The notes under the pieces were generated by a model. The model saw only the letters and a program-made list of their open reading frames with translations, made no database searches and was not told the origin of the DNA. From Lachnospiraceae bacterium HCP1S3_C2 (GTDB lineage: Bacteria; Bacillota; Clostridia; Lachnospirales; Lachnospiraceae), in the NCBI GenBank assembly GCA_052066835.1, contig JBQHRJ010000002.1: 64,000 nucleotides of DNA; one strand, 5' to 3'. Positions 11,137 to 28,089 of this stretch are shown here, one piece after another; positions within the stretch are counted from its first letter, which is position 1, and every line of letters begins with the position of its first letter. Made by a program: the position numbers and the translations under genes.

Positions 11137-12270
11137 TTACATAAGGAAATCCTTGATTTTTTTACTTCTGACAGGATTACGCAGTTTTCTTAACGCTTTC
11201 GCTTCTATCTGTCTGATTCTCTCTCTGGTAACGTTGAATTCCTTACCTACTTCTTCAAGGGTTCTCGGATGTCCATCCTCCAGACCAAATCGTAAAACGA
11301 TAACCTGTCTCTCTCTGTCTTTCAAATCCTGTAACAATAAATCTATATGCTCTCTCAACATTACAGACTCCACATTTGCCTCTGGAGTCACAGTATTATT
11401 ATCAGCCACGAAATCGCCAAGATTTGAATCATCCTCTTCACCTATAGGTGTCTCCAATGATGCCGGTTCTCTGGCAATCTGCATAATCTCCAAAACTTTG
11501 CTCTCAGACATGCCAAGTGCCTCTGCAAGCTCTGCTGATGATGGCTCATATCCAAGCTCAAGTGTAAGTTTTCTCTGCATCTTAGACATTCTGTTTATAG
11601 TCTCAACCATATGAACAGGAACTCTGATGGTTCTTGCCTGATCTGCCAATGCTCTTGTTACAGACTGTCTGATCCACCATGTGGCATAGGTACTGAGCTT
11701 GTAACCTTTCTCATAGTTAAACTTCTCAACACCCTTTATAAGCCCCAGATTACCTTCCTGAACAAGATCCAGAAAGCTCATGCCTCTTCCTGTATACCTC
11801 TTTGCTATACTTACCACAAGACGCAAATTTGCCTCTATAAGCCTGTCCTTTGCAACCTCATCGCCTTCAGCCTTACGTTTTGCAAGTCTCAGTTCTTCCT
11901 CTGCTGTAAGAAGCGGAACTGTACCAATCTCTTTCAGATACATTCTGACAGGATCTTCAGTACCTATTCCTTCAAGAAGATTAATGGCATCTATATCTAC
12001 CTTTTCATCCTCTTCTTCCTCCAATTCTTCATCGGTCGGCTGCAAATCATCATCATCAAAGTTGAGTGCCAGTGGTATCTGGTCCTCACTTATCTGAAGA
12101 ACATCAATCTTATTCTCCTCAAGATACTGATATACCATATCCATCTGATCAGCATTTAAATCCATACCCTGAAAATAGTCATTTATTTCCTTTATTGATA
12201 AAACATCTTTCTTATTTCTGCCTAATTCTACTAATTCCTTTAATTTCTTTGTAAACTCAGCTGCGTCCAC
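11137..12270 (-). CDS. sigA: Primary RNA polymerase sigma factor (sigma-70/SigA)
   Basis: 377 aa. Acidic region 1.1/1.2, then regions 2-4 ([25 protein letters not shown], region 4 [20 protein letters not shown]). Confidence 0.9.
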
Positions 12271-12419
12271 TAATATCGGTCCTTTCTAGAATCATACTCT
12301 AATTATATCTACCTCGGAGCAACATTATACACAAAAAAAACTCTGCTGTAAATAAGATACACGAATTTTTTTTATTTTTGTATAAAAGTATAATATTTTG
12401 TCGAACATCCATGCCTAAA

Positions 12420-13343
12420 TTAGTTACAATTTAGAGCTTTTACCTTGTCCAATCCCGTCATTATTTCCAATGCATGATGATAATTGCGTATAATCACTTT
12501 CTTTGGTGCCCCGCCATACTCTCCATCAAGTACCCACGGTATATTTTCCTCTGTTTCAATCTCTACTCTGGACGTTTTATATGTCTCAACATTATCACAC
12601 TTTACATCCATTCCTATCAGTTTTCCCAATATAAGCTGAAGCTCTATGGGATTCTTAGGCGGACGTATAAGTGTCATTTCAAATAAACCGTCATCAAGTA
12701 CTATATTTTTTCCTGTCATTCCCTTAAATCCACCAACTGACACAGAATTAGTAACCATGCCATACATATAATCTCCCTCTATAGTTTTATCTTCAAGCTC
12801 TGCTTTTATTCTATACTTTCGCAATGAAGTTAATTTTTTTACGGCTTCTATTATATATGCCGGATGGCCTAATGTATTCTTCATCTCCTGCGGTGTCATA
12901 TATGAGACATCAGTAAATGCTCCAAATGCCGCAATATACACAAATTTTTTCTTATTAAATCCGCCTATGTCTACATTTAACGGTGTTCCATTAAGCACAA
13001 TATCCGCTGATTCATTCATGTTTTTAGGCAGTGAAATACTTGTTGCAAAATCGTTTGTAGAACCTGATGGTATATATCCTATTCTTATCTTTTCATCTAA
13101 CTCCATCATTCCTGAGACCACTTCATTTAATGTACCATCTCCGCCACTGCACACAACCATATCAAAATCTTCTGCCCATCTGACAACTTTTTCCTTCGCA
13201 TCCATTTTATTCTGTGTTGGATATAATTCCACCCTGTAACCGGCCTTTACAAATTTATCAACTATTCCTGACAGATAATCCTTTATCATTCCTTTTCCGG
13301 ACCGTGGATTATATATAAATAACAATTTCTTCATAAAGTTCAC
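12420..13343 (-). CDS. Diacylglycerol/lipid kinase (DAGK_cat, YegS/DgkB family)
   Basis: 307 aa. LFIYNPRSGKG ... VVCSGGDGTLNEV catalytic motifs. Confidence 0.75.
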   Translation of the reverse strand: MNFMKKLLFIYNPRSGKGMIKDYLSGIVDKFVKAGYRVELYPTQNKMDAKEKVVRWAEDFDMVVCSGGDGTLNEVVSGMMELDEKIRIGYIPSGSTNDFATSISLPKNMNESADIVLNGTPLNVDIGGFNKKKFVYIAAFGAFTDVSYMTPQEMKNTLGHPAYIIEAVKKLTSLRKYRIKAELEDKTIEGDYMYGMVTNSVSVGGFKGMTGKNIVLDDGLFEMTLIRPPKNPIELQLILGKLIGMDVKCDNVETYKTSRVEIETEENIPWVLDGEYGGAPKKVIIRNYHHALEIMTGLDKVKALNCN

Positions 13344-13378
13344 ATCCTGACAATATATAATAATGCTTCTACTTATGC

Positions 13379-13411
13379 AAAAAAGGAACCGGTATTTAAC
13401 ACCGGTTCCAT
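13379..13411 (-). terminator. Intrinsic terminator after secreted protein P1
   Basis: Minus-strand RNA GGAACCGGUguuaaauACCGGUUCC followed by UUUUUUGC. Confidence 0.6.
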
Positions 13412-13432
13412 GAAAACATTCACCTTAAAGGC

Positions 13433-14338
13433 TTATTTTTTCTTCTTTCCTAATACGATAGCAACTGCTGCAATTACAACAACTACTACGATTACTACTA
13501 CTACGATTACACCTGTGTTAGATGATGAATCATCTTTGCTGTCATCAGCCTTTGAAGCTGCTGTTGTATCTTCTTTAGCGTCTGTAGCCTTCTCTGTGAT
13601 TGTCTCACTCTGATCCTCACCTGTAACAGACTCATCTTCGCCATTATCTGCTGTTGCTGTCATTGTAACACCAACTTTTTCAGCTAAATCAGCATTTAAC
13701 TTAGCAACATCCTGACAATCTCTGTCTTTGTTTGTATCACCTGTTGTAGCATTTGGTTCTGCGTTCTCGATAGCATCTTTTGTAGCCTCTGTGAACTCAT
13801 ATGGATCTTCGTCTTTAGATTTCCATCTTACTAAGTAATTGATAGAATTCTTGTCAGCGTCTGCAACTACTACAGCACCTGTTGTAGAATCTACGTATAC
13901 TGTAACTTCACCTGTTGTCTCAGCAGGGAGTTTGAACTGTGTCTGGTTATCTCCCCATGCGATTGATGGGTTACCTAAACAACACTGATATGTCCATGCA
14001 AAATCATCTGCATCTTTTAAAATCTTGAACTCGTATCCTACTGGAATCTCAAGTCCGTCATATTTTGTATCTCCTTCACCTGTATCAGCTGTAGCTACGT
14101 TGAATGTAACTGAATATACATTCTCTACATCTGTCTCTGTCATAAGGCCCATTTCACCTGGTGCACCAGGATTTGTATCGTCCGTCTGAGCTGCCTCTAA
14201 CCAAGACTCACCTACTAAACCTTCTGCTCCAACTACTTTGTAAGTTGATCCGTCGCCTGCATATGCTAAACATCCCATTGCAATTGTCATTGCTGCTGTA
14301 GCTGCACATACTACAACTTTTTTAATCATTTTTCTCAT
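13433..14338 (-). CDS. Secreted surface protein P1: signal peptide + uncharacterised ~130-aa W/C domain (domain X) + acidic linker + SSNTG/TM/KKKK C-terminal sorting-signal-like tail
   Basis: 301 aa. Signal peptide MRKMIKKVVVCAATAAMTIAMGCLAYA. Domain X is paralogous to repeats in 15491-16405 and 17980-20235 (GxxxYTV.GGF...W.PL, QCCLGNPSIAWGDNQTQFKL, TGAVVVADADKNSI). The C-terminus is SNTGVIVVVVIVVVVVIAAVAIVLGKKKK. Confidence 0.7.
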   Translation of the reverse strand: MRKMIKKVVVCAATAAMTIAMGCLAYAGDGSTYKVVGAEGLVGESWLEAAQTDDTNPGAPGEMGLMTETDVENVYSVTFNVATADTGEGDTKYDGLEIPVGYEFKILKDADDFAWTYQCCLGNPSIAWGDNQTQFKLPAETTGEVTVYVDSTTGAVVVADADKNSINYLVRWKSKDEDPYEFTEATKDAIENAEPNATTGDTNKDRDCQDVAKLNADLAEKVGVTMTATADNGEDESVTGEDQSETITEKATDAKEDTTAASKADDSKDDSSSNTGVIVVVVIVVVVVIAAVAIVLGKKKK

Positions 14339-14470
14339 CTCGAAAAACTTCTCCTTTCAATTATTAAATAAAATCTGCTGTAGATATTTCCTACAACACT
14401 AGTATATTGTATATCATATACCTGTTTTTTGCAATCCTTTTTTTGCCATATCTTAACCCGGCAATAAGGT

Positions 14471-14503
14471 AAAAAAGGTCGCATATCAGCATGACATGCA
14501 ACC
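14471..14503 (-). terminator. Intrinsic terminator after P2
   Basis: Minus RNA GGUUGCAUgucaugcugaUAUGCGACC + UUUUUUACC (8-bp stem including one G-U pair). Confidence 0.5.
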
Positions 14504-14520
14504 CTTTTGTATGTAGTGAA

Positions 14521-15252
14521 TTATTCGTTAACTCTTCTTCTTGAAGCTACGAATACTGCTGCTGCTGCAATACCTGTGAATACGATTGCGTAAGCTGCGC
14601 TGTCACCTGTCTTTACAGATGTATTAGCTGTAGCTGTTGTAGCTGTTGTAGAACCAGCTGCTGCTGTTGTATCAGTTGTTGCTGAAGCTGTCTTTACATA
14701 GCTTGCAGGAGCTTCTGTTAAGAGCTTAGCTGCTGCTGCACCTGTATCACCTGAGAAATCACACCAGTAATCACCTGTTGCTGATGTAAACTGGTTCTTA
14801 GGGATAAGCTGGTTAGCTGTCTGCTGTTTAGCTGATGTGTCTTTTGTAAGACCTGAATTGTCAACATATGCCTGGTCTGACTCATCTCCGCCTGAAGCTG
14901 TATCAACCTTTGTATCTGCTACCATGTTATTGAAGATGGCAACTAATCCCTGTGAAGGATCCTGAACTGTAACTGTGATAGAATACCATCCATCATAGTC
15001 AGCCTCTTTTGTAAGTCTTGCACCCGGCCAGATTGCTCTACTCTTCTCTGTGTTGTATGCAGGGCACTTATCCTGTGGCATAATCTGTGTAGTAAATCCT
15101 ACACCTTCATAAATCCAACCACCAACATCGCTCCAGTTTGCTGCATTCTTAAAATGTAATGTAACATCCTGAGCAGCGAATGCAGATAATGACATAGCTG
15201 TTGTCATTGCTGCTGTTAATCCTACTGCAAATAACTTCTTTAAATTTCTCAT
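14521..15252 (-). CDS. Secreted surface protein P2: signal peptide + CBM25/26-like aromatic module (domain Y) + linker + VKTGD/TM/RRR tail
   Basis: 243 aa. Signal peptide ends AFA/AQD. Domain Y (DVTLHFKNAANWSDVGGWIYEGVGF...WPGARLTKEADYDGWYSITV...VAIFNNMVADTKVDT) resembles the starch-binding CBM25/26 sequence pattern. C-terminus is NTSVKTGDSAAYAIVFTGIAAAAVFVASRRRVNE. Confidence 0.65.
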   Translation of the reverse strand: MRNLKKLFAVGLTAAMTTAMSLSAFAAQDVTLHFKNAANWSDVGGWIYEGVGFTTQIMPQDKCPAYNTEKSRAIWPGARLTKEADYDGWYSITVTVQDPSQGLVAIFNNMVADTKVDTASGGDESDQAYVDNSGLTKDTSAKQQTANQLIPKNQFTSATGDYWCDFSGDTGAAAAKLLTEAPASYVKTASATTDTTAAAGSTTATTATANTSVKTGDSAAYAIVFTGIAAAAVFVASRRRVNE

Positions 15253-15424
15253 TTTTTCTCACTTCTCCTTTTTATTTTTTTCATGAAGCAGACCACAATC
15301 CGACTTCATATTAATGTTATTATAGCCTAAACTTTCCTATTTTGCAATACTTTTGTTTGAGCATTTTTCACAAAAAATACATATTTTTTTATGAATCTTA
15401 TACAGTTTTAATAGACATTTCATA

Positions 15425-15458
15425 ACAAAAGGAGACAATAAATAAATTACTGTCTCCT
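15425..15458 (-). terminator. Intrinsic terminator after P3
   Basis: Minus RNA GGAGACAGUAAuuuaUUUAUUGUCUCC + UUUUGUU. Confidence 0.5.
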
Positions 15459-15490
15459 TCTAAGTTGCTAATAATTATATGTATAAGTTA

Positions 15491-16405
15491 TTAAGCTTCT
15501 TTCTTCTTTGCTGCTACTGCAACTACTGCTGCAGCTGCGCATAATGTAACTACCATTGCTACTGGAGCTGCATCTCCTGTCTTTGTAGATGCGTTCTTAG
15601 CTGTTGTAGCTGTGTTAGCTGCTGTTGTAGCTGTGCTGGCTGCTGCTGTTGTAGCTGTGTTAGCTGCTGCTGTTGTCTCAGGTGTTGGTGCAGGTGTGCT
15701 TGAAAGCTTAGCTTCAAGTGCTGCATTAAGGCTTGCAAGATCAGGAATAGCTGTACATCCTGCTGCCTGTGCTTTAGCTGCCTTATCAGCTGCATAATCA
15801 CTCCATGAAGACTTAGACATATCTGCTACTGTCATCCATTTTAACTCATTATCATATCCAACGAAACTGATCATGTAATCAATTGAGTTACCGTCAGCAT
15901 CTTTGATAACTACTGCACCAGTTGTTGTATCCCAGTATACTGTTACTTCTGTCTCTTTGTCTACAGGAATTCTGAATCTTGACATGTTATCCTGATAAAG
16001 AGTTGTTCCGGCAATAAGTGAGTGATCCCATCCATCACCAAAAATCATGTTATCAACTGTACAAAGCTTGAATTCATTCTTTGTTCTTGATTCATCAGTA
16101 TCTTCAAAAGCAGGTACTGTGAATGTTCCAGAATATACTCCTGCATAATCTGTCTTTGTAAGCATATTATCAACTGCTAAAGGACCCCACTGAACTTTAG
16201 TGAATCCACCACCAATTGTATAATACACTTCGCCATCAGCTAATGACATAGGATCGATAGCTGCGTATGAAGTATGTGCTTCATCTGTTAATGTTTCCAT
16301 AACTGTTGGAAGTTCTGCCTTAGCTGTAGTAGCAGGTATAAGTGTTGCTGCTGCAACTGCAACTGCACATGCTAATGCAGAAACTGCTTTAATTGATTTT
16401 CTCAT
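15491..16405 (-). CDS. Secreted surface protein P3: signal peptide + domain X + T/A-rich linker + STKTGD/TM/KKK tail
   Basis: Start moved to the ATG at 16405 (MRKSIKAVSALACAVAVAAATLIPATTAKA signal peptide, with a purine-rich RBS upstream). The track ORF start at 16474 adds 23 implausible residues. Domain X: GEVYYTIGGGFTKVQWGPL...FKLCTVDNMIFGDGWDHS...TGAVVIKDADGNSI. C-terminus TKTGDAAPVAMVVTLCAAAAVVAVAAKKKEA. Confidence 0.7.
   Translation of the reverse strand: MRKSIKAVSALACAVAVAAATLIPATTAKAELPTVMETLTDEAHTSYAAIDPMSLADGEVYYTIGGGFTKVQWGPLAVDNMLTKTDYAGVYSGTFTVPAFEDTDESRTKNEFKLCTVDNMIFGDGWDHSLIAGTTLYQDNMSRFRIPVDKETEVTVYWDTTTGAVVIKDADGNSIDYMISFVGYDNELKWMTVADMSKSSWSDYAADKAAKAQAAGCTAIPDLASLNAALEAKLSSTPAPTPETTAAANTATTAAASTATTAANTATTAKNASTKTGDAAPVAMVVTLCAAAAVVAVAAKKKEA
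15596..15680. repeat. Intragenic tandem repeat (about 24-27 nt x3+) encoding the TATTAA(N/S) linker of P3
   Basis: tgttgtagctgtgttagctgctgc units repeat directly. Length variation is possible. Confidence 0.55.
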
Positions 16406-16530
16406 TGTAAAATCCATCCCTTTCTTCTTTTTGATTTTATTTTTCCTTATGTCAAAAATGACATGTCTACACACTATTAATTATATTATATAAACCCTTT
16501 ATTTGCAACACTTTTGTAATAAAAACTTCA

Positions 16531-16560
16531 AAAAAACCGGGCAGTTTTTAACTACCCGGC
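16531..16560 (-). terminator. Intrinsic terminator after P4
   Basis: Minus RNA CCGGGUAGuuaaaaaCUGCCCGG + UUUUUUUG. Confidence 0.6.
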
Positions 16561-16572
16561 CGTAAATTTTTA

Positions 16573-17706
16573 TTATTTTGTAACTTTAATCTTCTTATAA
16601 CTCTTTGCAGATACCTCTGTCATAGCCTTAATACCTGATACATCTCTGTAAGCAGCTGCTTTATAATAGTATGTCTTACCCTTTTTAGCTGTCTTATCTG
16701 TGTATGTAGTCTTAGTTGTTGATCCGATTGGCTCATATCCGCTGCCCTGTTTTGTTGAACGGTAAATGATGTATCCTGAAGCTTTGCTTACTGCATTTAC
16801 TTTAACTGTAACTTTACCTTTAGTTGTGTTTGATACAGATTTAACTGTTGGTATATCTAATGGTACTGCATATACTTCATTTGATGATGCAATAGATTTG
16901 CTTCCCTTAACAGCCTTGATTGTAAACTTGTAAGCTTTTCCTGCTTTAAGTGCCTTTTTGTTGAATTTTGTTACTGTAACAGTTGATTTAGTTGTTGAAG
17001 CAACCTTAACATTTTTCTTAGTTACTGAGTCATAGCAGAAAATGTTATACTTCTGAGCACCCTTATATTTGTCCCAAGAAAGTTTAACTGCACTCTTGCC
17101 TGTTGCAACTGCTGTAGCGTTGTTTACAACTGTAGATGCTTTCTTCTTGTATGATGCAGGAGCTGTATCAGTCATTAATATAGCTGATCCATTAACGTCA
17201 CCATTGAAATCACACCAATATTCTGTTGCTGTAAATTTACCCTTCATGATACATGCATTAGGAGCCTGTATCTTCTTTGCTCCGTTTATGTTATCTTTCT
17301 TAAGTCCTGATGCATCAACAAATTCCTGATCTTCCGGATGTCCGCCTGAAGCTGTATCAACTTTTTCATCAGCTACAAGGTTGTTGAATATCATGATAGC
17401 ACCATTTGATGTATCCTCAAATGTAGCTGTGATAGTATACCATCCGTCATAATTTGCCTCTGCTGTCATCTTAGCGCCAGGCCAGATTGCATGGTCATAA
17501 ATTGTATCATATGCAGGTGTAAATTCCTTAGGTGTAACATTCTTTGTCCAACCTATACCTTCATATATCCATGCTCCACAATCTTCCCAGTTATTTGTGT
17601 TTTTAAAATGGAAAGTAACATCTGTAGCTGCCATTGCCATTACTGACATAGCCATTGTCATAGCTGCTGTAGCGCCGACTGCAACAATTTTTTTAAGATT
17701 TCTCAT
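16573..17706 (-). CDS. Secreted surface protein P4: signal peptide + CBM25/26-like domain Y + two K-rich FN3-like domains, no membrane anchor
   Basis: 377 aa. Its N-terminal 140 aa are paralogous to P2 (DVTFHFKNTNNWEDCGAWIYEGIGW...IMIFNNLVADEKVDT). C-terminal FN3-like segments (SGYIIYRSTKQGSGYEPIGSTTKTTYTDKTAKKGKTYYYKAAAY). Confidence 0.65.
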   Translation of the reverse strand: MRNLKKIVAVGATAAMTMAMSVMAMAATDVTFHFKNTNNWEDCGAWIYEGIGWTKNVTPKEFTPAYDTIYDHAIWPGAKMTAEANYDGWYTITATFEDTSNGAIMIFNNLVADEKVDTASGGHPEDQEFVDASGLKKDNINGAKKIQAPNACIMKGKFTATEYWCDFNGDVNGSAILMTDTAPASYKKKASTVVNNATAVATGKSAVKLSWDKYKGAQKYNIFCYDSVTKKNVKVASTTKSTVTVTKFNKKALKAGKAYKFTIKAVKGSKSIASSNEVYAVPLDIPTVKSVSNTTKGKVTVKVNAVSKASGYIIYRSTKQGSGYEPIGSTTKTTYTDKTAKKGKTYYYKAAAYRDVSGIKAMTEVSAKSYKKIKVTK

Positions 17707-17926
17707 AATTCTATCTCCTTCTTTCTCTTTTTTACACTGACCACTTCAGTTAGGATTATTATATATCATTCTGCCCTTTTTTTCAATAGCTTTTGCCTAT
17801 TTTATTATGTATTTTTACCAACTTCAACACAAGTTACCACTCTTGTATTCGTCATATTAGCACAATCCATCCCCTGGCGAAGACCATTTTATGCAGACAT
17901 AATGTTGCATGTCACCATTGTATAAC

Positions 17927-17962
17927 GAAAAAATGAGCGTCCCATTAGCGAGACGCCCATTG
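17927..17962 (-). terminator. Probable intrinsic terminator after P5
   Basis: Minus RNA GGGCGUC-(10-nt loop)-GACGCUC followed by AUUUUUUCG. Confidence 0.4.
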
Positions 17963-17979
17963 AATAATCTTTAATTAAA

Positions 17980-20235
17980 TTATTTAACTGTAACTTTAAC
18001 TGTCTTAGTTGCTCCACCGCTTGTAATCTTAACTTTAGCAGTACCTTTCTTAAGACCCTTAACTGTTACTTTGCTTCCTGATGTTGTAATCTTAACTATC
18101 TTCTTAGAAGCTGATGTAGCATATGTAGCTTTAAATCCAGCTTTTGAAGGAGAAGTTGTAACTGAAAGTTTTACACTCTTAGCTTTCTTAAGTGAAACGC
18201 TTGAAACTTTCTTAGAACCATTCTTAACTGTGATTGTTGGGTTCTTAACTGTGATTGTTACTTTCTTTGTAATTCCGTTAGCTTTTGCAGAAATTACAAC
18301 CTTACCAGCTTTCTTAGCTGTTACAACACCCTTAGATGATACTGTTGCAACTCTTGTATTTGATGACTTATATGTTACTTTCTTGCTGTCGCCCTTAACT
18401 GTTGCCTTGATTGTTGTTTTGTATGTAGATTTTCCTGTGTAAAGTGTTGTCTTACCTGCTTTAATCTTTAATGAAGGCTTAACTGGTTCCGGAGCCGGTT
18501 TAGATAACTTCTCTACAAGTGCATTGTTAATCTCTGCTACGTTAGGAACTGCATCTACTTTAACCTTACCTGCTGGCCACTGATCTAATGTTGTAGCTGC
18601 TATCTCTTCCGGTGACATGAACTGTGTCTCATCATCATATCCTACCCAGCTGATTGAAAGGTCTACAAGATTTCCATCTGCATCCTTAACTACTACAGCA
18701 CCTGTTGCTGTATCAAGGTAGATTGTGAATGTTCCTGCTTCTTTATTAAGGATTCTGATCTGTGACTGATTGTCTGCATAAGTTGTTGTACCTACACAAA
18801 GACTTCCTGACCATCCTGCATCAATAATTGTATTGTTGATTCTGCAAACTTTAAATCTGTTGTTCCACTCTGCTGTCTCATCATATGCTCCGAGATCTAC
18901 AGTATAGCTGTATACTCCTTCATATGCTGTTGCAGCCATTGTGTTTGTCTTAGCTAATGGGTTCCATGTTGTTGGTCCGAATCCGCCTGCTATTGTATAG
19001 TAAGCTTCTCCTTCTTTCATTGTAGTTGTATCATACTCTAATGAATTCTTAAGAGCATCATTAATCTCTACAAGGTTTGGAACTGAATCTACTTTAACTT
19101 TTCCAGCTGGCCACTGATCTAATGTAGAAGCTGCTATCTCTGCCTCTGACATGAACTGTGTCTCATCATCATATCCTACCCAGCTGATTGAGAGATCTAC
19201 GAATTTACCATCTGTTCCTTTAACTGCTACAGCACCTGTGCTTGCATCGAATAAGATGTAGTATGTACCTGCTGTCTCATTAAGGATTCTGATCTGTGAC
19301 TGATTGTCTGCTGCTACAGTTGTTCCTAAGCAAACGCTTCCTGACCATCCTGCATCAATGATTGAGTTGTCAATCTTGCAAACTTTAAATCTGTTGTTCC
19401 ACTCTGCTGCTTCATCATATGCCTGAAGATCAGCTTTCATAATATATAAGCTGTCACTTCCTGCAACTTTTGTCATCTCTGCTTTTCTTGCAAGAGGATT
19501 CCATGTCTTAACTCCAAAGCCACCTGCTACTGTGTAGTGTACTTCACCTTCAGCCATTGTGCTTGGATCCATGTTTGTAAGTTTATCAGATAATGCTGCG
19601 TTAATCTTGTCAAGTGCAGGAACTGCATCTACTTTAACCTTGCCTGCCGGCCACTGGTCTAATGTAGAAGCTGCTATCTCTGCTGCTGACATGAACTGTG
19701 TCTCATCATCATATCCTACCCAGCTGATTGAAAGATCTACATCTGCATCATTTGCATCTCTTACAACTACAGCACCTGTTGTAGAATCAAAATATACTGT
19801 GAATTTTCCTGCTTCTTCATTAAGAATTCTGATCTGTGACTGATTGTCTGCTGCTACAGTTGTTCCTAAGCAAACGCTTCCTGACCATCCTGCATCAATG
19901 ATTGAGTTGTCAATCCTGCAGACTTTAAATCTGTTGTTCCACTCTGCTGCTTCATCGTATGCCGGAAGCTCAGCTGTGAAAGAATATACACCGTCAAGTC
20001 CTTCTACTGCTTTCATCTCAACATCCTTAGCTAACGGATTCCATGTAACTTTTCCAAATCCGCCTGCAACTGTATAGTGTACTTCTCCGTCTGCCATAGC
20101 AGTTGTGTCAAACTCCTCCGGTGCAGGTGTGGCAGTGTCATCAGCTAATGCACTTACTGTTGGAACTGCTGCCATAGTGAACGCCATAGCTACTGCACTT
20201 GCTACTGCAACTGTGCTTTTAATTAATTTCTTCAT
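17980..20235 (-). CDS. Large secreted surface protein P5: signal peptide + 3 tandem domain-X repeats (about 190 aa each) + two K-rich Big_2-like Ig domains
   Basis: 751 aa. Three near-identical repeats (GEVHYTVAGGFGKVTWNPL...AEWNNRFKVCRIDNSIIDAGWSGSVCLGTT...TGAVVVRDA...ISWVGYDDETQFMS..EIAASTLDQWPAGKVKVD). C-terminal KVTITVK/KVKITSGG Big_2-like pattern. Confidence 0.75.
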   Translation of the reverse strand: MKKLIKSTVAVASAVAMAFTMAAVPTVSALADDTATPAPEEFDTTAMADGEVHYTVAGGFGKVTWNPLAKDVEMKAVEGLDGVYSFTAELPAYDEAAEWNNRFKVCRIDNSIIDAGWSGSVCLGTTVAADNQSQIRILNEEAGKFTVYFDSTTGAVVVRDANDADVDLSISWVGYDDETQFMSAAEIAASTLDQWPAGKVKVDAVPALDKINAALSDKLTNMDPSTMAEGEVHYTVAGGFGVKTWNPLARKAEMTKVAGSDSLYIMKADLQAYDEAAEWNNRFKVCKIDNSIIDAGWSGSVCLGTTVAADNQSQIRILNETAGTYYILFDASTGAVAVKGTDGKFVDLSISWVGYDDETQFMSEAEIAASTLDQWPAGKVKVDSVPNLVEINDALKNSLEYDTTTMKEGEAYYTIAGGFGPTTWNPLAKTNTMAATAYEGVYSYTVDLGAYDETAEWNNRFKVCRINNTIIDAGWSGSLCVGTTTYADNQSQIRILNKEAGTFTIYLDTATGAVVVKDADGNLVDLSISWVGYDDETQFMSPEEIAATTLDQWPAGKVKVDAVPNVAEINNALVEKLSKPAPEPVKPSLKIKAGKTTLYTGKSTYKTTIKATVKGDSKKVTYKSSNTRVATVSSKGVVTAKKAGKVVISAKANGITKKVTITVKNPTITVKNGSKKVSSVSLKKAKSVKLSVTTSPSKAGFKATYATSASKKIVKITTSGSKVTVKGLKKGTAKVKITSGGATKTVKVTVK
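18384..20097. repeat. Three tandem approximately 570-bp DNA repeats inside P5 (near-identical stretches, e.g. 19305-19380 vs 19845-19920)
   Basis: Long identical nucleotide runs seen directly (…gttgttcctaagcaaacgcttcctgaccatcctgcatcaatgattgagttgtcaatc… occurs twice). Confidence 0.7.
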
Positions 20236-20510
20236 AAATTAAAACCATCCCTTTCTTATGTTTTTTTGTTTTTTGCAATGTTGCATGAAATTATTATAGT
20301 ACATTTGCTATAATTTTGCAACTGATTTTCCCAAGTAATTGAACATTTTTAATAATTATTATGTAAAATTTTATCAATTACTATGTAAAATTACTTAAAA
20401 GTTCTAAAAAAACTTAAATCATTATAAACATTTTGGCTATTAGTTGAGTTTTTTTTCACAGTATGCTATACTTTGTGCATTATTTTTACTGAAAGAAGGT
20501 ACAATCACAT

Positions 20511-21257
20511 ATGGAAATATTGCAGCCCGGCAAAAAAAATGACGATGACGTAAAACACGGCAGACTTGAAGCTGAAGCAGAAATATACAATCCAAATCGT
20601 AAAGATCCGTCGGCATCCGAGCGTTGGAAAAGCATGGACAGGAAACAAAAGCTACACCATTTCAGGGAATACTACCTTAAATATGTAATATTGGGAATTG
20701 TTGTACTGGCATTTGCCGGCTACATGATATACTATATTGTAAAGCCTGATGAGAAAGATACATTTTTCGGTGCTTCATTTAATGTGTATTTTGATATTGA
20801 TTTAGAGAAGGATATTCCTGACCGTTTTGGAAAGTATCTTGAGAGCACTACAGATACAAAGCCTGACAAAGACAGAATATTTTTCAAATCATATTACGAT
20901 TCAGTCCTCACGGACACAGAAGTAAACAACTTCTTTGATAAACGCAGATACGATATATTTATCACAACCGAGAGCAGGTTTAAAACATATGCCAAAACCG
21001 ACAATTATTTAGACCTTAAGGATGTTCTTCCGGCTGATAAATATGAAGAATATAAAGATAAACTTGTATTTTGCAATAACCAGAAACAAAAGGATACTAC
21101 CACCGAACATGCCTATGGCATTTCGCTTAAAGACTGTAATTACAAATTTTACGATTATTACGAAAATCCAATCAATGATGCGGTTATAGGAATAGTCATC
21201 AATACCCAGCGTCCCGAAACCGCAATCGACTTTATTGATTTTCTGTTTAATGACTGA
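20511..21257 (+). CDS. Hypothetical single-pass membrane protein (cytoplasmic N-terminus, one TM, about 170-aa extracytoplasmic domain)
   Basis: 248 aa. TM segment YVILGIVVLAFAGYMIYYIV. No motif I recognise. Divergent from P5. Confidence 0.45.
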   Translation: MEILQPGKKNDDDVKHGRLEAEAEIYNPNRKDPSASERWKSMDRKQKLHHFREYYLKYVILGIVVLAFAGYMIYYIVKPDEKDTFFGASFNVYFDIDLEKDIPDRFGKYLESTTDTKPDKDRIFFKSYYDSVLTDTEVNNFFDKRRYDIFITTESRFKTYAKTDNYLDLKDVLPADKYEEYKDKLVFCNNQKQKDTTTEHAYGISLKDCNYKFYDYYENPINDAVIGIVINTQRPETAIDFIDFLFND

Positions 21258-21292
21258 TTTAAAACAGAGATTTATTTGCACCAAAAATCCCC

Positions 21293-21337
21293 ACAGTGTA
21301 TCAGATAATGATATACTGTGGGGATTTTATATTTACG
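21293..21337. terminator. Bidirectional intrinsic terminator between convergent genes
   Basis: aaaaATCCCCACAGTGTATCagataatgATATACTGTGGGGATtttat. A perfect 16-bp stem with an A-tract and a T-tract on either side. Confidence 0.7.
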
Positions 21338-21386
21338 CAGGCAACGTACGAAAATCCTAAGTTACCTCCAAAATGTCCTGCCCTTA

Positions 21387-23063
21387 TTATTTAAGAACCA
21401 CTATTGAAAAAGGTGGCATTACGATTGTATCTTCTGTCTGATAAGGTTCATCATCACCGACTGCAAGGATGGCTTTAATGTTTGTATAACCATTTTCAGT
21501 TCTGTCCAGTTTAACTTCCTTTTCGTCTGTTGATGACGTATTTGCAAGTACAATTATGCTGCTGCCCTCATAAGTCTTTCTTACTGCAAATATTTCCTCA
21601 TCCACACCGTCTATTATTTCCACATCTCCTCGTGCCATTTCTGGAAACATGTTTCTTATTTTAACAGCATGTTTTACATAATTTAATATAGAGCTGTCAT
21701 CTTTGAGCTGTTCTTCCACTGAACCGAATTTGTTAATGACATATGCAGACTGCATATTTACCGGTCCTCTTGTTTTTCCTGTATCATCTGTCGATGACCA
21801 TATCATAGGTGAACGCTTGTTTTCATCATCACCCGCTCCTCCGAGTCCTATTTCATCACCATAATAATAGAAAGGTGAACCATTCATTATGCTTAACAGT
21901 CCGGCATCCATCTTTATTTTGTCCTCTTTAAATGCAAGATAATGTGCTGCCCTGTTCAAATCATGATTTGCATAAAAAGGAGCCATTACTCCGTTTGGAT
22001 TTTTACTCTTTATAGTATCAAGTGAATAAACAAGATTGTCTGCAAGATAACGTCCATTATACTCTTTATTATTATCCTGTACTATGTTTGCAAGGTGTCC
22101 GTCAAAGCTTGCATAGTTGAAATCAAATACACTGTCTATTCCGCTGGCAAGATATTCATAATAATCTCCTGACCACGCCTCTCCGACTATGTAGGCATCA
22201 GGTTTTATACTCTTGACATACTGGCTGAACCATGTGAGAACCTCCACATTTTTAGGTGTATTTCCTGAATAATATTCTTTCACTGCATCAAGTCTGAATC
22301 CGCCTACACCGTACTCCTCTATCCAGTATTTTGCAATATTTTCAAATTCCTCTTTAAGCTTTGGATTGTCCCAGTTAAGGTCAGGCATGTTGCTGCTGAA
22401 CTGTGCATTGTAATACCAATCTGAATTGCCTACCTGATAATAATTTCCCGATTCTTTAGTTCTTGAGAATGTATAATATCCAACGTATGGGCATACATTT
22501 TCGTCAGGCTCCTCTCCCGGTGCCAGACTTTCAAGATATTCTGAAGCCTTCAAAAACCATTCATGGTGATCACTCGAATGATTCATGACAAGATCCATTA
22601 TAACCTTAATGCCTCTCTTATTACACTCTTCCACCAACTGTTTAAAGTCTTCTTTTGTTCCGTATCCTGAGTCAATGTCATAATAATCCATAACATCATA
22701 TTTATGATATGTAGGAGACGGATTCACAGGCATAAGCCATAAGCCGTTCATCCCAAGGTCATCATCTGTAGTATCATCACCATCATTTATATAATCAAGC
22801 TTTGATATAAGTCCCTGAATATCTCCCAGGCCGTCACCATTACTGTCATAAAATGAACCTACAAATACTTCATAATAATTTCTGTAGTTATCATCAACCA
22901 CGTTAAGTTCCGTAGCAAGCTCCGGAGCGACAGTTTCCACTTCTACCTTTTTGTCTGTCTCCTTAGAAGCATCCTTTTTGTCAGTTGTACCGCACGCACA
23001 GATTCCCAGACACAATGCACCGATGGCAACTGATGCAAATAACTCTTTTTTTGTTAATCTCAT
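21387..23063 (-). CDS. GH13 alpha-amylase family lipoprotein
   Basis: 558 aa. Lipoprotein-like signal (…ALCLGICACG), GH13 conserved regions (DLVMNHSS, GGFRLDAVKE, EAWS, FYANHD). Confidence 0.8.
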   Translation of the reverse strand: MRLTKKELFASVAIGALCLGICACGTTDKKDASKETDKKVEVETVAPELATELNVVDDNYRNYYEVFVGSFYDSNGDGLGDIQGLISKLDYINDGDDTTDDDLGMNGLWLMPVNPSPTYHKYDVMDYYDIDSGYGTKEDFKQLVEECNKRGIKVIMDLVMNHSSDHHEWFLKASEYLESLAPGEEPDENVCPYVGYYTFSRTKESGNYYQVGNSDWYYNAQFSSNMPDLNWDNPKLKEEFENIAKYWIEEYGVGGFRLDAVKEYYSGNTPKNVEVLTWFSQYVKSIKPDAYIVGEAWSGDYYEYLASGIDSVFDFNYASFDGHLANIVQDNNKEYNGRYLADNLVYSLDTIKSKNPNGVMAPFYANHDLNRAAHYLAFKEDKIKMDAGLLSIMNGSPFYYYGDEIGLGGAGDDENKRSPMIWSSTDDTGKTRGPVNMQSAYVINKFGSVEEQLKDDSSILNYVKHAVKIRNMFPEMARGDVEIIDGVDEEIFAVRKTYEGSSIIVLANTSSTDEKEVKLDRTENGYTNIKAILAVGDDEPYQTEDTIVMPPFSIVVLK

Positions 23064-23614
23064 TTCTTTCCTCCAATTTTCTTTTTTTGTTCTGAACGTA
23101 ATATGTCAAACGATGTAAATACATAGAAAATCACCGTCACTGCACATATCTTCGAGAAGAAGAAAAATGCTATTTCGATTTCCTCAAAGTTTAAGAATAC
23201 ATACTCAGCTATATAACACACCAGTATAACTCTCCAAACCATGGTCAACCGCTTGCTTTGTATATCCAGCCTTGGATTTTTAAAGCTTTTTAACGCAAAC
23301 GTCAGTAAAAATATTGTTGTCACTTTAAGCATATCCGATGCCGCACTTATCATCGTAACCGCCATCACAGGCATTTTCGACATCAGTCCGTACATATCAA
23401 GAATGTACGCCACATACGAATACACAAATGCCACTATAAGAGAAATATTAAATTTCTTAAAGTCGGCAGACCCGTTTTTATATTTCCACGCCCCCCAGAA
23501 TATCAGAAGATATCCTATAAAATCAGGCAGTATATCTGCTCTGTTTCCCTGAGTTCCTATCTGATACACAATATCAAACAGTACCAGGAAGTATCCTATT
23601 ATAATTCGGATCAT
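23060..23614 (-). CDS. Polytopic membrane protein, translationally coupled upstream of amylase
   Basis: 184 aa, about 5 TM segments. Its stop overlaps the amylase start by 4 bp (ATGA). Confidence 0.5.
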   Translation of the reverse strand: MIRIIIGYFLVLFDIVYQIGTQGNRADILPDFIGYLLIFWGAWKYKNGSADFKKFNISLIVAFVYSYVAYILDMYGLMSKMPVMAVTMISAASDMLKVTTIFLLTFALKSFKNPRLDIQSKRLTMVWRVILVCYIAEYVFLNFEEIEIAFFFFSKICAVTVIFYVFTSFDILRSEQKKKIGGKK

Positions 23615-23798: not shown

Positions 23799-25355
23799 AT
23801 GGGAGAAATGTTTTGTTTTCAATGCCAGCAGACATCCCACAATACAGGCTGTGAGGGACGTGCCGGCGTATGCGGTAAAAAGTATGATACCGCAAATTAT
23901 CAGGATGAGCTTACAGGCGCACTTATAGGACTTTCCCGTGCCGTCAGATCATCTGAGCCTACTGATACATCTGATGAACTTATGTTTAAAGGCCTGTTTA
24001 CAACTATAACAAATGTAAATTTTAATAACGAAACCATCAACGATCTTATTAAAAAAGTCAGAACAGAAAAGAAGAATATATCCGATGATGCTGATGATTA
24101 TAATATGCAGCATTTATGGGCAGCCGACGAAGATATCCGCTCTCTCAAATCTCTTATATTATTCGGTCTGCGTGGCATGGCGGCATACGCATATCATGCA
24201 TACGCCCTCGGATACAAAGACCGGGAGGTAACTGACTTTTTCTATGAAGGGCTTTGCGCTGTGGGCGGTGAACATGACACAGATTATCTGTTATCCGTTG
24301 TGTTAAAAACAGGTGAGGTGAATTTTAAGTGTCTTGAACTTCTTGACACGGCAAATACCGAAACCTATGGTAACCCGGTTCCCGTCACTGTACCGCTTAC
24401 TATAGAAAAAGGACCGTTTATAGTTGTCAGCGGACATGACCTTCACGACATGAAGCTTTTACTTGAACAGACGGACGGAACCGGCGTAAACGTGTATACA
24501 CACAGCGAAATGCTTCCTGCCCACGGTTATCCGGAACTAAAGAAACACAAGCAGCTAAAGGGTAACTTCGGTACTGCATGGCAGAGCCAGCAGTTTGAAT
24601 TTCACAATATTCCTGCTCCAATATTATTCACAACGAACTGCCTTATGCCGGTACGCCAAAGCTATTGTGACCGTGTCTATACTACATCTGTCGTCTCTTA
24701 TCCTGATCTCATCCACATAGGAGAAGATAAAGATTTCACACCGGTAATCCAAAAAGCCATCGAATGTAAAGGCTATCCGGAAGACCACCCTATGACCGGC
24801 ATAAATGGCGGTACAACTGTTACAACCGGTTTCGGACACGATGCCATACTTTCACATGCCGAAAAAATCATTGAACTCATAAACAAAGGAAAAATAAAGC
24901 ACATATTCTTAATCGGCGGCTGCGACGGTGCTGCTCCAGGGAGAAGCTATTATACTGAATTTGCAAAATCTGTACCTGATGACGCAATTATTATTACTCT
25001 TGCATGTGGAAAATACAGACTGAATGATTTAAACTTAGGAGATATAGAAGGAATTCCCCGTCTTCTCGATGCCGGACAGTGTAACGATTCATACACTGCC
25101 ATCAAGGTCGCCCTCGCTCTTGCAGATGCATTTAAATGTAATGTAAACGAACTTCCTCTTACACTTGTTCTTTCATGGTATGAGCAAAAGGCTGTTTGTA
25201 TTCTGCTCGCCCTTCTCTCACTCGGAATTAAAAATATATTTCTCGGGCCAACCATACCGGCATTTATATCAGAAAACGTTCTGAATATCCTTATAGAAAA
25301 CTACGGAATAAGAAAAATCTCTACCGTAGAAGAAGACCTTGCAAAATCTTTTTAA
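23799..25355 (+). CDS. hcp: Hydroxylamine reductase / hybrid-cluster protein
   Basis: 518 aa. N-terminal CFQCQQT...C...C cysteine cluster and hybrid-cluster ligand regions (CGKYRLN, GQCNDSY). Confidence 0.8.
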   Translation: MGEMFCFQCQQTSHNTGCEGRAGVCGKKYDTANYQDELTGALIGLSRAVRSSEPTDTSDELMFKGLFTTITNVNFNNETINDLIKKVRTEKKNISDDADDYNMQHLWAADEDIRSLKSLILFGLRGMAAYAYHAYALGYKDREVTDFFYEGLCAVGGEHDTDYLLSVVLKTGEVNFKCLELLDTANTETYGNPVPVTVPLTIEKGPFIVVSGHDLHDMKLLLEQTDGTGVNVYTHSEMLPAHGYPELKKHKQLKGNFGTAWQSQQFEFHNIPAPILFTTNCLMPVRQSYCDRVYTTSVVSYPDLIHIGEDKDFTPVIQKAIECKGYPEDHPMTGINGGTTVTTGFGHDAILSHAEKIIELINKGKIKHIFLIGGCDGAAPGRSYYTEFAKSVPDDAIIITLACGKYRLNDLNLGDIEGIPRLLDAGQCNDSYTAIKVALALADAFKCNVNELPLTLVLSWYEQKAVCILLALLSLGIKNIFLGPTIPAFISENVLNILIENYGIRKISTVEEDLAKSF

Positions 25356-27312: not shown

Positions 27313-28089
27313 ATGGATAATAAACTTTATATTTTGATTATAGAAGATGATAATGATGCATGCGCCAGACTTGAAAAATGTATAGATGCAAACGAATCAA
27401 TGTATATAGCAGGTATCACCGGCAGTTCAACTGAAGGGCTTAAATGTATTACTAACTGTCGCCCGAATGTTGTCATACTTGACCTTGAACTCATGTATGG
27501 TGAAGGCGACGGAATATCTTTTCTAAAAGACTTAAAAGCCCTCAATCCTTCAGTATTTCCGTTTATAATAGTGACTACCAACAATCCGAGTACATCTATT
27601 CATGAGCTTACAAGATCTCTCGGTGTTGACTATATTATGTATAAGCATCAAAAAGGATATTCAGAACAGTCTGTCATAGACTTTCTTGATATAACTAAAG
27701 ATTTCATAGTGAACAATCATAAACCGGATGAATGTGCAGAAGTTCCTGAGATTGAACATAAAAAGAAGCTTTCTCTTGCAGTTAAAAATGAACTTAACAG
27801 ACTCGGTGTGAGTCCTAAATTAATAGGCTATACATACCTGTATGAAGGAATTCTTATTCTTCTTGAAGATAACACAAGCAATGTATTTAATATTCTTTCA
27901 GGCAAATACCACAAATCCATTCAGAGCATACAACGTTCAATGCAGACCGCAATTAATAAGACATGGGCAGTATCAAGCATATCAACACTTGAAAAATATT
28001 ACACAAACCGAATACGTCCGGATAAAGGAGCACCTACAGTAATGGAATTTATACATTACTATAGAAACCAGTTATCTGACAACATTTAA
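27313..28089 (+). CDS. Spo0A-like response regulator (receiver + divergent Spo0A_C DNA-binding domain)
   Basis: 258 aa. Receiver domain (LIIEDDND...VVILDLELMYGEGDG). The C-terminus aligns to Spo0A_C (GVSPKLIGYTYLYEGI ... SIQRSMQTAINKTW ... APTVMEFI vs Spo0A GVPAHIKGYLYLREAI...RVERAIRHAIEVAW...KPTNSEFI). Confidence 0.65.
   Translation: MDNKLYILIIEDDNDACARLEKCIDANESMYIAGITGSSTEGLKCITNCRPNVVILDLELMYGEGDGISFLKDLKALNPSVFPFIIVTTNNPSTSIHELTRSLGVDYIMYKHQKGYSEQSVIDFLDITKDFIVNNHKPDECAEVPEIEHKKKLSLAVKNELNRLGVSPKLIGYTYLYEGILILLEDNTSNVFNILSGKYHKSIQSIQRSMQTAINKTWAVSSISTLEKYYTNRIRPDKGAPTVMEFIHYYRNQLSDNI

Follow-up and report, generated by a model that had tools for sequence, protein, structure and literature searches.

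The 751-aa secreted protein encoded on the minus strand at 17980..20235 carries three copies of a domain, here called domain X, that is probably a divergent and previously unannotated relative of the X25 type, with a family-specific helical tail of ~55 aa and a proposed capacity to bind alpha-glucan (starch). The gene lies in a 64,000-nt stretch of Lachnospiraceae bacterium HCP1S3_C2 DNA (the window), and its product was laid out from the open reading frame and its translation. A signal peptide (aa 1-31; 20143..20235) has a predicted cleavage site between PTVSALA and DD, placed from the AxA motif. It is followed by unit 1 (aa 41-220; 19576..20115), unit 2 (aa 221-399; 19039..19575), and unit 3 (aa 400-578; 18502..19038), and then by a Pro-rich linker with two Big_2 Ig-like domains (17983..18501), all on the minus strand. 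The Big_2 match (PF02368) scores 46.2 bits against a Pfam cut-off of 22.8 and falls in two stretches, the better at aa 589-663. This C-terminal region is rich in lysine (23.7%; pI 10.8) and contains no sortase or transmembrane anchor. A terminator-like hairpin on the same strand, with a 13-bp stem and a T-run, lies just past the stop codon (17932..17961). The exact protein is named by NCBI as 'Ig-like domain-containing protein [Lachnospiraceae bacterium HCP1S3_C3]', and public annotation goes no further than 'Ig-like domain-containing protein' or 'hypothetical'.

The three motif copies run head to tail within the single open reading frame, starting at aa 50, 230, and 409. An initial sequence-only reading had described them as near-identical 570-bp repeats of a ~130-aa domain extending down to position 18384, and most of these particulars required correction. 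The conserved unit is ~180 aa (180, 179, and 179 aa for units 1-3), made up of a beta-sandwich of ~125 aa and a helical tail of ~55 aa; the repeat period is 534-540 bp, and the units span 18502-20115, so that the earlier limit overshoots the repeats by ~120 bp, reaching the linker and Big_2 tail. Pairwise identity among the units is 74-79% in DNA and 66-73% in protein, with dS of 0.51-0.73, which is well short of near-identity. Unit 2 is closest to unit 1 (73% protein identity), while unit 3 is 66-69% identical to units 1 and 2.

Because dS reaches 0.5-0.7, recent duplication of the units as wholes, which had been read from their DNA identity, is rejected. The accompanying suggestion of concerted evolution fares better at a local scale. 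A 90-nt run is identical between units 1 and 2 (19286-19375 and 19826-19915), and runs of 45-48 nt are shared with unit 3, such as 18613-18660, which recurs at 19687-19734 in unit 1. Synonymous change is almost zero in these local tracts, which point to patchy gene conversion. The concern that the repeat number could be an assembly artefact was also dismissed, since the exact 751-aa protein is present on 12 contigs, forms of 751-755 aa occur on contigs of up to 2.1 Mb, and dozens of long contigs carry the version with three copies. The anticipated variation in copy number is seen between species, where proteins have 1 to 4 units. Within the species it is limited to two short or low-coverage contigs: a one-copy version on a 5.3-kb scaffold (P0001/L001) and a two-copy version on a 1.6-kb contig at 2x coverage (P0005/L004). 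P0001 reads from unit 1 into unit 2 and then unit 3, with overlapping alignments to units 1 and 3; given this arrangement and the short or thinly covered sequences, recombination and mis-assembly are indistinguishable for these versions.

Five copies of domain X had been proposed for the window, and scanning all six translated frames with an HMM gave exactly that number: three in 17980-20235 and single copies in 15491-16474 and 13433-14338. The HMM was partly built from those same five copies, and the BLASTP comparison of unit 1 with the paralogues thus provides independent support. The fourth copy (15704..16258, minus strand) is a single unit in a 327/304-aa protein, matching unit 1 with an E-value of 8e-44 and 42% identity over 187 aa, with an HMM domain score of 211 bits. 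After the unit, this protein continues with a linker rich in Thr and Ala and a C-terminal sorting signal of the KTGD type. The fifth copy (13673..14257, minus strand) is the most diverged and is the single unit of a 301-aa protein with a hydrophobic anchor at its C-terminal end. It matches unit 1 over its C-terminal half (BLASTP E-value 2e-13), with an HMM domain score of 152 bits and 30% identity in alignment A1. Both sequence strings quoted earlier for the diverged copies are present.

The same reading assigned each copy two conserved cysteines and a likely disulfide. C66 and C82 of the unit are invariant in units 1-3 and in close orthologues, but each of the two window paralogues keeps just one of the pair. 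Of 37 family sequences, 10 have both cysteines, 16 lack both, and 11 have a single one. A disulfide-stabilized domain was rejected on this pattern of co-occurrence, and a required disulfide in domain X is unlikely because the two residues are not conserved across the family.

At the level of sequence, the earlier remark that domain X could not be matched by eye to a known family largely stands. Neither the domain X region of the 751-aa protein nor any single unit matches a Pfam or NCBIfam model at the curated cut-off, and searches of PDB sequences (phmmer and hmmsearch with the protein and profiles A1 and A2) returned only chance-level matches, for instance to a nanobody, colicin D, and chromodomains. 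Domain X gives neither a Pfam match nor a close fold match to the starch-binding families of CAZy for which Pfam has CBM models, among them CBM20, CBM25, CBM26, and CBM48. The Pfam model PF22058, X25_BaPul_like, scores 21.8 bits (E-value 2e-4) on the window protein against a cut-off of 27 and aligns ~28 residues of its 87 positions. Unit 1 alone scores 15.9 bits, and units 2 and 3 are unlisted up to an E-value of 10. X25_BaPul_like is the commonest family match among 45 homologues (8 members at E-values of 1e-3 or lower), and its best score, above the cut-off, is in a 4-unit homologue, P0003 (57.1 bits, E-value 1.9e-15).

Profile comparison makes sequence homology to a solved X25 domain detectable. 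Using hhalign, family profile A2 aligns to lobe X25-2a of Ruminococcus bromii Sca5 with a probability of 93.8% and an E-value of 1.7e-7, pairing unit positions 13-123 with lobe positions 2-99 across the complete lobe; the match to lobe b is weak (35.8%). The family itself is rare: clustering at 50% identity yields only 54 clusters from a set of 1.84 billion representative proteins. A word-indexed search with a single unit returned 2 proteins, the family being found by exhaustive profile search, and a scan of a genome collection with the closer alignment A3 returned one locus. Literature searches on the family and on the strain name found nothing specific to either.

The predicted structure agrees with this assignment. 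The model of a single unit (pLDDT 97.1, pTM 0.92) contains a beta-sandwich that superposes on solved X25 domains, and Foldseek places the Sca5 X25 chain 7rpy_A at the top (E-value 0.011, probability 1.00). Each unit is predicted to consist of an X25-like beta-sandwich (about aa 10-125) fused to the helical tail, which separates adjacent units. The two-unit model (pLDDT 92.9, pTM 0.86) shows no bilobed clamshell like that of Sca5 X25-2/Sas20d2, as it aligns to 7rpy_A over 109 residues, corresponding to one lobe. The tails may act as fairly rigid spacers, a suggestion whose sole basis is the single pTM value of 0.86 from a 16-sequence alignment.

A rigid-looking model of this kind would also suit a domain that serves as a structural stalk or spacer with an X25- or Ig-like fold and no affinity for carbohydrate, keeping the protein at a distance from the wall or presenting other partners. 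The C-terminal half of the 751-aa protein is itself Ig-like (Big_2), and the family includes many large adhesin-like proteins that carry LRR_5, Flg_new, and fn3 modules and no CAZyme domain. The Bacillus pullulanase has an X25 domain that is not known to bind any ligand. The X25 lobes of Sca5 did not bind maltooligosaccharides in isolation (PMC9112005), and in view of both cases the X25 fold alone does not guarantee binding. What weighs against a stalk is the pattern of conservation. In Sca5/Sas20, the ligand is contacted by W509/W620, W555/W661, K654, N564, and N684/N687 (PMC9112005). In the hhalign alignments, W25 of the unit pairs with both W509 and W620, K64 with K654, and D90-N91-Q92 with D562-N563-N564; W77 and W555 occupy separate columns ~5 residues apart in a gapped region. 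These residues are among the most conserved in the family: across 37 sequences, S/T93 is kept in 37, W25 in 36, W77 in 34, D90 in 31, N91 in 28, and K64 in 25. The most conserved residues, the two tryptophans and the polar DN-S-Q loop, align with Sca5 ligand contacts or, for W77, lie near one, a pattern unlike that of a typical hydrophobic core. W25 and W77 are assumed, by homology, to be surface-exposed, and the candidate site in each unit would combine them with K64 of the central strand and the Asp-Asn-Gln-Ser-Gln loop (D90-Q94), a putative platform as in Sca5, Sas20, SusE, and SusF. Together with the conserved gene cluster and the family fusions discussed below, this makes the stalk an unlikely explanation.

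The genes around the 751-aa protein are also consistent with a role in starch binding. A neighboring gene, 16573..17706 (minus strand), encodes a surface protein with a CBM26-like N-terminal domain and a Lys-rich fn3 tail. The Pfam CBM26 score of 20.9 bits is below the cut-off and fn3 is matched; its orthologue in a second Lachnospiraceae MAG (L003) reaches 38.2 bits for CBM26, above the cut-off. A second surface protein, which combines CBM26 with a sorting signal of the KTGD type, is encoded at 14521..15252 (minus strand; 31.9 bits against a cut-off of 28.1, with a weak Rumino_NPXTG match). On the other side, 21387..23063 (minus strand) encodes an enzyme of the GH13 alpha-amylase family (Pfam Alpha-amylase, 259 bits) with an N-terminal signal or lipoprotein-like sequence, and this gene occupies an equivalent position in L003 and L001. 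The gene order is repeated in L003, where the orthologue of the 751-aa protein has two units. In a consensus scan, the 751-aa gene is preceded by a promoter-like box, TTGCAA-N17-TATAAT (20293..20321, minus strand), and an alignment of five upstream regions shows the same box before each of the other four surface-protein genes as well; both are pattern matches, and the five genes may be co-regulated. Elsewhere in the family, domain X is fused to GH13 and CBM48 (P0041), to CBM26 and a dockerin (P0010), and to modules that bind the wall, for example ChW, choline-binding repeats, and LRR_5.

These partners bear on two further explanations. Domain X could be a CBM for a non-starch glycan, such as glycogen from the host or from microbes, pullulan, dextran, or some unrelated glycan of dietary or host origin. 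Its family is distant from characterized X25 domains (22% identity to Sca5), the inserted loops (unit aa 45-60 and 66-76) and the extra tail could reshape the site, and most family members have no amylase domain. Yet the closest structural neighbors of the unit all come from alpha-glucan systems, and every CAZyme or CBM partner seen, in the locus or in fusions, is starch-related (GH13, CBM26, and CBM48), leaving a different glycan as a distinctly improbable ligand. Alternatively, domain X could be a protein-protein module, a cohesin-like or scaffoldin element of an amylosome-like complex, given that unit 2 weakly matches Pfam Cohesin (E-value 0.034, 14.8 bits), that two family members carry dockerins, and that Sca5, the closest solved relative, is a scaffoldin in which X25 domains accompany cohesins (PMC9112005). 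The Cohesin score is, however, far under the 24.1-bit threshold and confined to one of three units, and neither a dockerin nor a cohesin was found in the 10 locus proteins scanned (11137-23614). Cohesin-like identity was rejected on the basis of this sub-threshold match to a single unit, and a protein-binding role of this type is very improbable.

Fold likeness, profile homology, residue conservation, and gene context all favor the polysaccharide-binding module implied by the initial reading, in putative form and with starch as the probable ligand. The 751-aa protein would be exported by its Sec signal peptide and would present three units in a row at or near the cell surface. Thus, judging from its sequence and models, it is most likely a multivalent adhesin for starch and maltooligosaccharides, or for another alpha-glucan. 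With the helical tails as fairly rigid spacers, the three sites would remain separate and work independently, adding avidity without closing into a bilobed clamshell. The very basic Big_2 tail would probably hold the protein on the anionic cell wall. The 751-aa protein, the two single-unit paralogues, the two CBM26 proteins, and GH13, each with a similar promoter, would then make up a Gram-positive starch-capture locus. A broader reading is tentative and rather doubtful: that the ~180-aa unit defines a separate, Lachnospiraceae-centered starch-adhesion family forming rigid multi-site rods, and that the five-gene set (three X25-like, two CBM26, with a common promoter box) and GH13 constitute an undescribed, cohesin-dockerin-independent Gram-positive starch-capture system, a functional counterpart of SusE/F and of the R. 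bromii amylosome whose binding specificity would be determined by the extra loops and tail.

Among gut Firmicutes, a good understanding of how starch is broken down is limited to a few organisms, mainly R. bromii and E. rectale. The identification of domain X offers a testable function for proteins labeled 'Ig-like domain-containing' or 'hypothetical' in uncultured-type human-gut Lachnospiraceae, and extends the X25 group to a rare branch in which a helical spacer is added and a protein has 1 to 4 units. Should binding be confirmed, the family could be put forward as a defined family of starch-binding modules, and the Pfam X25 model could be broadened so as to detect it. This is a useful annotation that leaves the concepts of the field unchanged and introduces no new kind of biology.

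The closest known counterpart is the X25 of Sca5/Sas20 domain 2 from R. bromii (PDB 7RPY; Cerqueira et al. 2022, PMC9112005). Both share the order of landmarks (Y-x-V-A-G, W, M, G-V-Y, F-K, W, D-N-x, T-V-x-F-D, and T-x-x-I/V); three of the maltotriose contacts of Sca5/Sas20 are aligned, namely the first Trp, the Lys on the strand, and the Asn loop; and each belongs to a surface protein of a gut Firmicutes starch system, beside CBM26. Unlike Sca5/Sas20, to which identity is low as noted above, the 751-aa protein has no cohesin or dockerin, and its units have extra loops, among them the AEWNN segment, which contributes a third Trp (W59) that is semi-conserved. Furthermore, Sca5/Sas20 sets two X25 lobes back to back around one clamshell groove, whereas here a conserved helical tail separates the units. 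In pullulanases, such as that of Bacillus acidopullulyticus (PF22058, PDB 2WAN), X25 is an accessory domain inside the enzyme, while domain X makes up the bulk of a protein that is not catalytic. CBM26 modules, such as that of Eubacterium rectale Amy13K (PDB 6B15), presumably share the same ligand and are present in the neighboring genes. SusE and SusF of Bacteroides thetaiotaomicron (PDB 4FE9, 4FEM, and 4FCH) differ in being Gram-negative outer-membrane lipoproteins of a SusC/D-type locus, in having neither an inter-module helical tail nor a Big_2 tail, and in sharing no sequence similarity with domain X detectable by HMM. Despite these differences, they likewise array X25-like beta-sandwich modules in tandem on a non-catalytic surface protein with GH13 alongside. 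Since each of their modules is an independent starch-binding site, SusE and SusF provide the best functional analogy for the three independent sites proposed here.

The minus-strand ORF at 17980-20235 encodes a 751-aa protein in which a Sec-type signal peptide (residues 1-31 of the translation) is followed by three head-to-tail units of domain X: unit 1 (residues 41-220; 19576-20115), unit 2 (residues 221-399; 19039-19575), and unit 3 (residues 400-578; 18502-19038). In the translation, a Pro-rich linker C-terminal to unit 3 leads into two Big_2 Ig-like domains (46.2 bits in Pfam, where the cut-off is 22.8). The last 173 residues have a pI of 10.8 and 23.7% Lys, and contain neither a sortase nor a transmembrane anchor. 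Scanning all six reading frames with an HMM gave exactly five copies of domain X in the window, as a sequence-only reading had proposed, three of them being the tandem units. The period, identity, and extent of the repeats in that reading did not hold. The measured period is 534-540 bp rather than 570 bp, and the supposedly near-identical units share 74-79% identity in DNA and 66-73% in protein. The proposed domain of ~130 aa, whose motif begins at residues 50, 230, and 409, gives way to a conserved unit of ~180 aa that includes the segment D-L-S-I-S-W-V-G-Y-D-D-E-T-Q-F-M...I-N-A-A-L, which is kept in both paralogues and across the domain X family. Each unit carries a tail of ~55 aa, confidently predicted to form one short strand and two helices.

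The remaining two copies are single units in minus-strand ORFs at 15491-16474 (327 aa; BLASTP against unit 1, E 8e-44, 42% identity over 187 aa) and 13433-14338 (301 aa; E 2e-13). The GTG start listed for the former (16406-16474) probably lies too far upstream; an ATG (MRKSIK...) 23 codons further in lines up with where the paralogous genes begin and yields a 304-aa product, which is the NCBI assembly call. Both paralogues end in sorting-type signals. Read from sequence, the minus-strand C-terminal ends of the 327-aa protein (15491-15600) and of the neighboring 243-aa protein (14521-14620) feature S-[VT]-K-T-G-D followed by a hydrophobic segment and a K/R tail, resembling a variant sortase signal; the sole support for this is a weak NCBIfam Rumino_NPXTG match (18.8 bits; cut-off 23.5). 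The C-terminus of the 301-aa protein (13433-13530) consists of SSNTG followed by a poly-Val helix and KKKK. Within the two paralogue genes, tandem repeats of 15-24 bp (15583-15676 and 13462-13510) encode low-complexity Thr/Ala-rich linkers (e.g., TTAAANTATTAAASTATTAANTATTA) that join the binding unit to the C-terminal anchor.

The tandem units had also been read as pointing to recent duplication or concerted evolution. Nei-Gojobori estimates among units 1-3 give a dS of 0.51-0.73 and a dN/dS of 0.31-0.39, which makes the units, taken whole, old and subject to purifying selection. How far they have diverged varies along their length. Against a background pS of ~0.4-0.5, codons 61-100 of units 1 and 2 show a pS of 0-0.14, including an identical run of 90 nt (19826-19915 and 19286-19375), and a second low-pS tract at about codons 125-150 is common to all three units, with identical runs of 45-48 nt. 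Given this background, the low-pS tracts are best explained by local gene conversion.

Homologues carry one, two, three, or four units. In a distance tree, some units group by position across species, the first and last units of P0004 pairing with their counterparts in P0007 and those of P0006 with their counterparts in P0009. Others group within their own protein, as do all four units of P0003, both units of P0008, and the three tandem units of the 751-aa protein. This indicates that expansion has recurred, that units have been homogenised, or both. Assembly error does not account for the three-unit form: the exact 751-aa sequence is found on 12 contigs, and variants of 751-755 aa occur on dozens of contigs of up to 2.1 Mb. 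Among metagenome contigs of close relatives, one of which originates from an ENA metagenome assembly, two carry shorter forms. P0001 (3504-4346 of the 5.3-kb scaffold L001) is a one-unit chimera running from the start of unit 1 through the middle of unit 2 to the end of unit 3; the stretches of it that align to units 1 and 3 overlap one another. P0005 (65-1411 of L004, a 1.6-kb contig at 2x coverage) is a two-unit form with units 1 and 3. Genuine unequal recombination could have produced these forms, as could assembler collapse or other mis-assembly.

The 751-aa gene is flanked by the two single-unit paralogues, two CBM26 proteins, and a GH13 enzyme (21387-23063, 259 bits), all on the minus strand. 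The CBM26 match is 31.9 bits in the 243-aa protein (14521-15252) and weak in the 377-aa protein (16573-17706), whose orthologue in a second Lachnospiraceae MAG (L003) scores 38.2 bits. Gene order in L003 is the same, and its orthologue of the 751-aa protein has two units. The 558-aa GH13 protein begins with a lipoprotein-like signal (...ALCLGICACG...). Upstream lies a gene (23060-23614) whose stop overlaps the GH13 gene by 4 bp and whose 184-aa product is a multi-pass membrane protein that matched no family; this pair is kept in L001 and L002, and L003 has a HAD-family hydrolase in place of the membrane protein. Elsewhere, domain X units are fused to GH13+CBM48+ChW (P0041), to CBM26+dockerin+LRR_5 (P0010), or to choline-binding repeats. 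Both anchor-less surface proteins bear extremely Lys-rich Ig-like tails (17983-18501 and 16573-17133, the latter an fn3 tail with 19.3% Lys and a pI of 10.1), which may be non-covalent cell-wall binding regions.

By pattern match, all five surface-protein genes are preceded by a near-identical promoter-like box on the minus strand (A-tract, TTGCAA, N17, TATAAT; 20293-20321, 17758-17786, 16480-16508, 15319-15347, and 14406-14434), ~60-90 nt ahead of the start (ATGAGA or ATGAAG), with TTGAAA before the 377-aa gene and TACAAT before the 301-aa gene. A terminator-like hairpin follows four of the five and was not found after the 243-aa gene. This sequence pattern suggests separately transcribed, similarly controlled cassettes. 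Housekeeping genes lie nearby, among them the large glutamate synthase subunit (6233-10792), rpoD (11137-12270), hybrid-cluster protein (23799-25355), and spo0A (27313-28089); genes are mostly on the minus strand, and every 2-kb bin of 1-64000 shows negative GC skew. The window fits a chromosomal region of a spore-forming Clostridia genome, not a mobile element.

Domain X had not been matched by eye to a known family. It is indeed unannotated: no Pfam or NCBIfam model exceeds its cut-off on it, and searches of PDB sequences, profile searches included, returned no match. The family is also rare, with 54 members at E <= 1e-3 when 1.84 billion representative proteins were searched exhaustively with a profile, and one locus among 185,579 species genomes scanned. 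It is not an orphan, however. When the true sequence of the 7RPY chain (Ruminococcus bromii Sca5 X25-2) was recovered for hhalign, the family profile aligned over the whole of lobe a (93.8% probability, E 1.7e-7). Pfam X25_BaPul_like matches the 751-aa protein weakly (21.8 bits), scores 57 bits in P0003 with its four units, and is the commonest family match among 45 homologues (8 matches). Profile comparison and Pfam matches across homologues thus place the unit with X25 starch-binding modules, and it is very probably an X25 homologue.

In Sca5, maltotriose is contacted by W509, E508, and N564 in lobe a and by W620, W661, K654, N684, and N687 in lobe b, and W555 extends the binding platform (PMC9112005). 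hhalign places W25 of the unit opposite both W509 and W620, K64 opposite K654, and D90-N91-Q92 opposite D562-N563-N564. Among the best-conserved positions in 37 family sequences are W25 (36/37), K64 (25/37), D90 (31/37), and N91 (28/37), together with F63 (34/37), G84 (36/37), S/T93 (37/37), and W77 (34/37). W77 falls a few residues off W555 where the alignment is gapped, so that its equivalence to W555 is inferred. Less support exists for the units forming a non-binding stalk, binding another glycan ligand, or acting as a cohesin-like scaffold. The likely disulfide proposed earlier is not borne out, as the two Cys (C66 and C82) do not behave as a pair: both occur in 10 of the 37 sequences, neither in 16, and one in 11. 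Of the earlier interpretation, the unannotated status of the domain and a probable glycan-binding role hold, without a required disulfide or recent duplication.

On balance, we favor a multivalent starch or alpha-glucan adhesin, a statement that as a whole is somewhat less secure than the homology. The three divergent X25 modules of the 751-aa protein would provide the multivalency, helical spacers would keep them apart, the polycationic Ig-like tail would probably retain the protein on the wall, and the adhesin would act alongside the CBM26 proteins and the GH13 enzyme. Domain X would then be a variant of an already known module type, which is a useful annotation; it differs from X25 in its ~55-aa tail, of which X25 has no equivalent.
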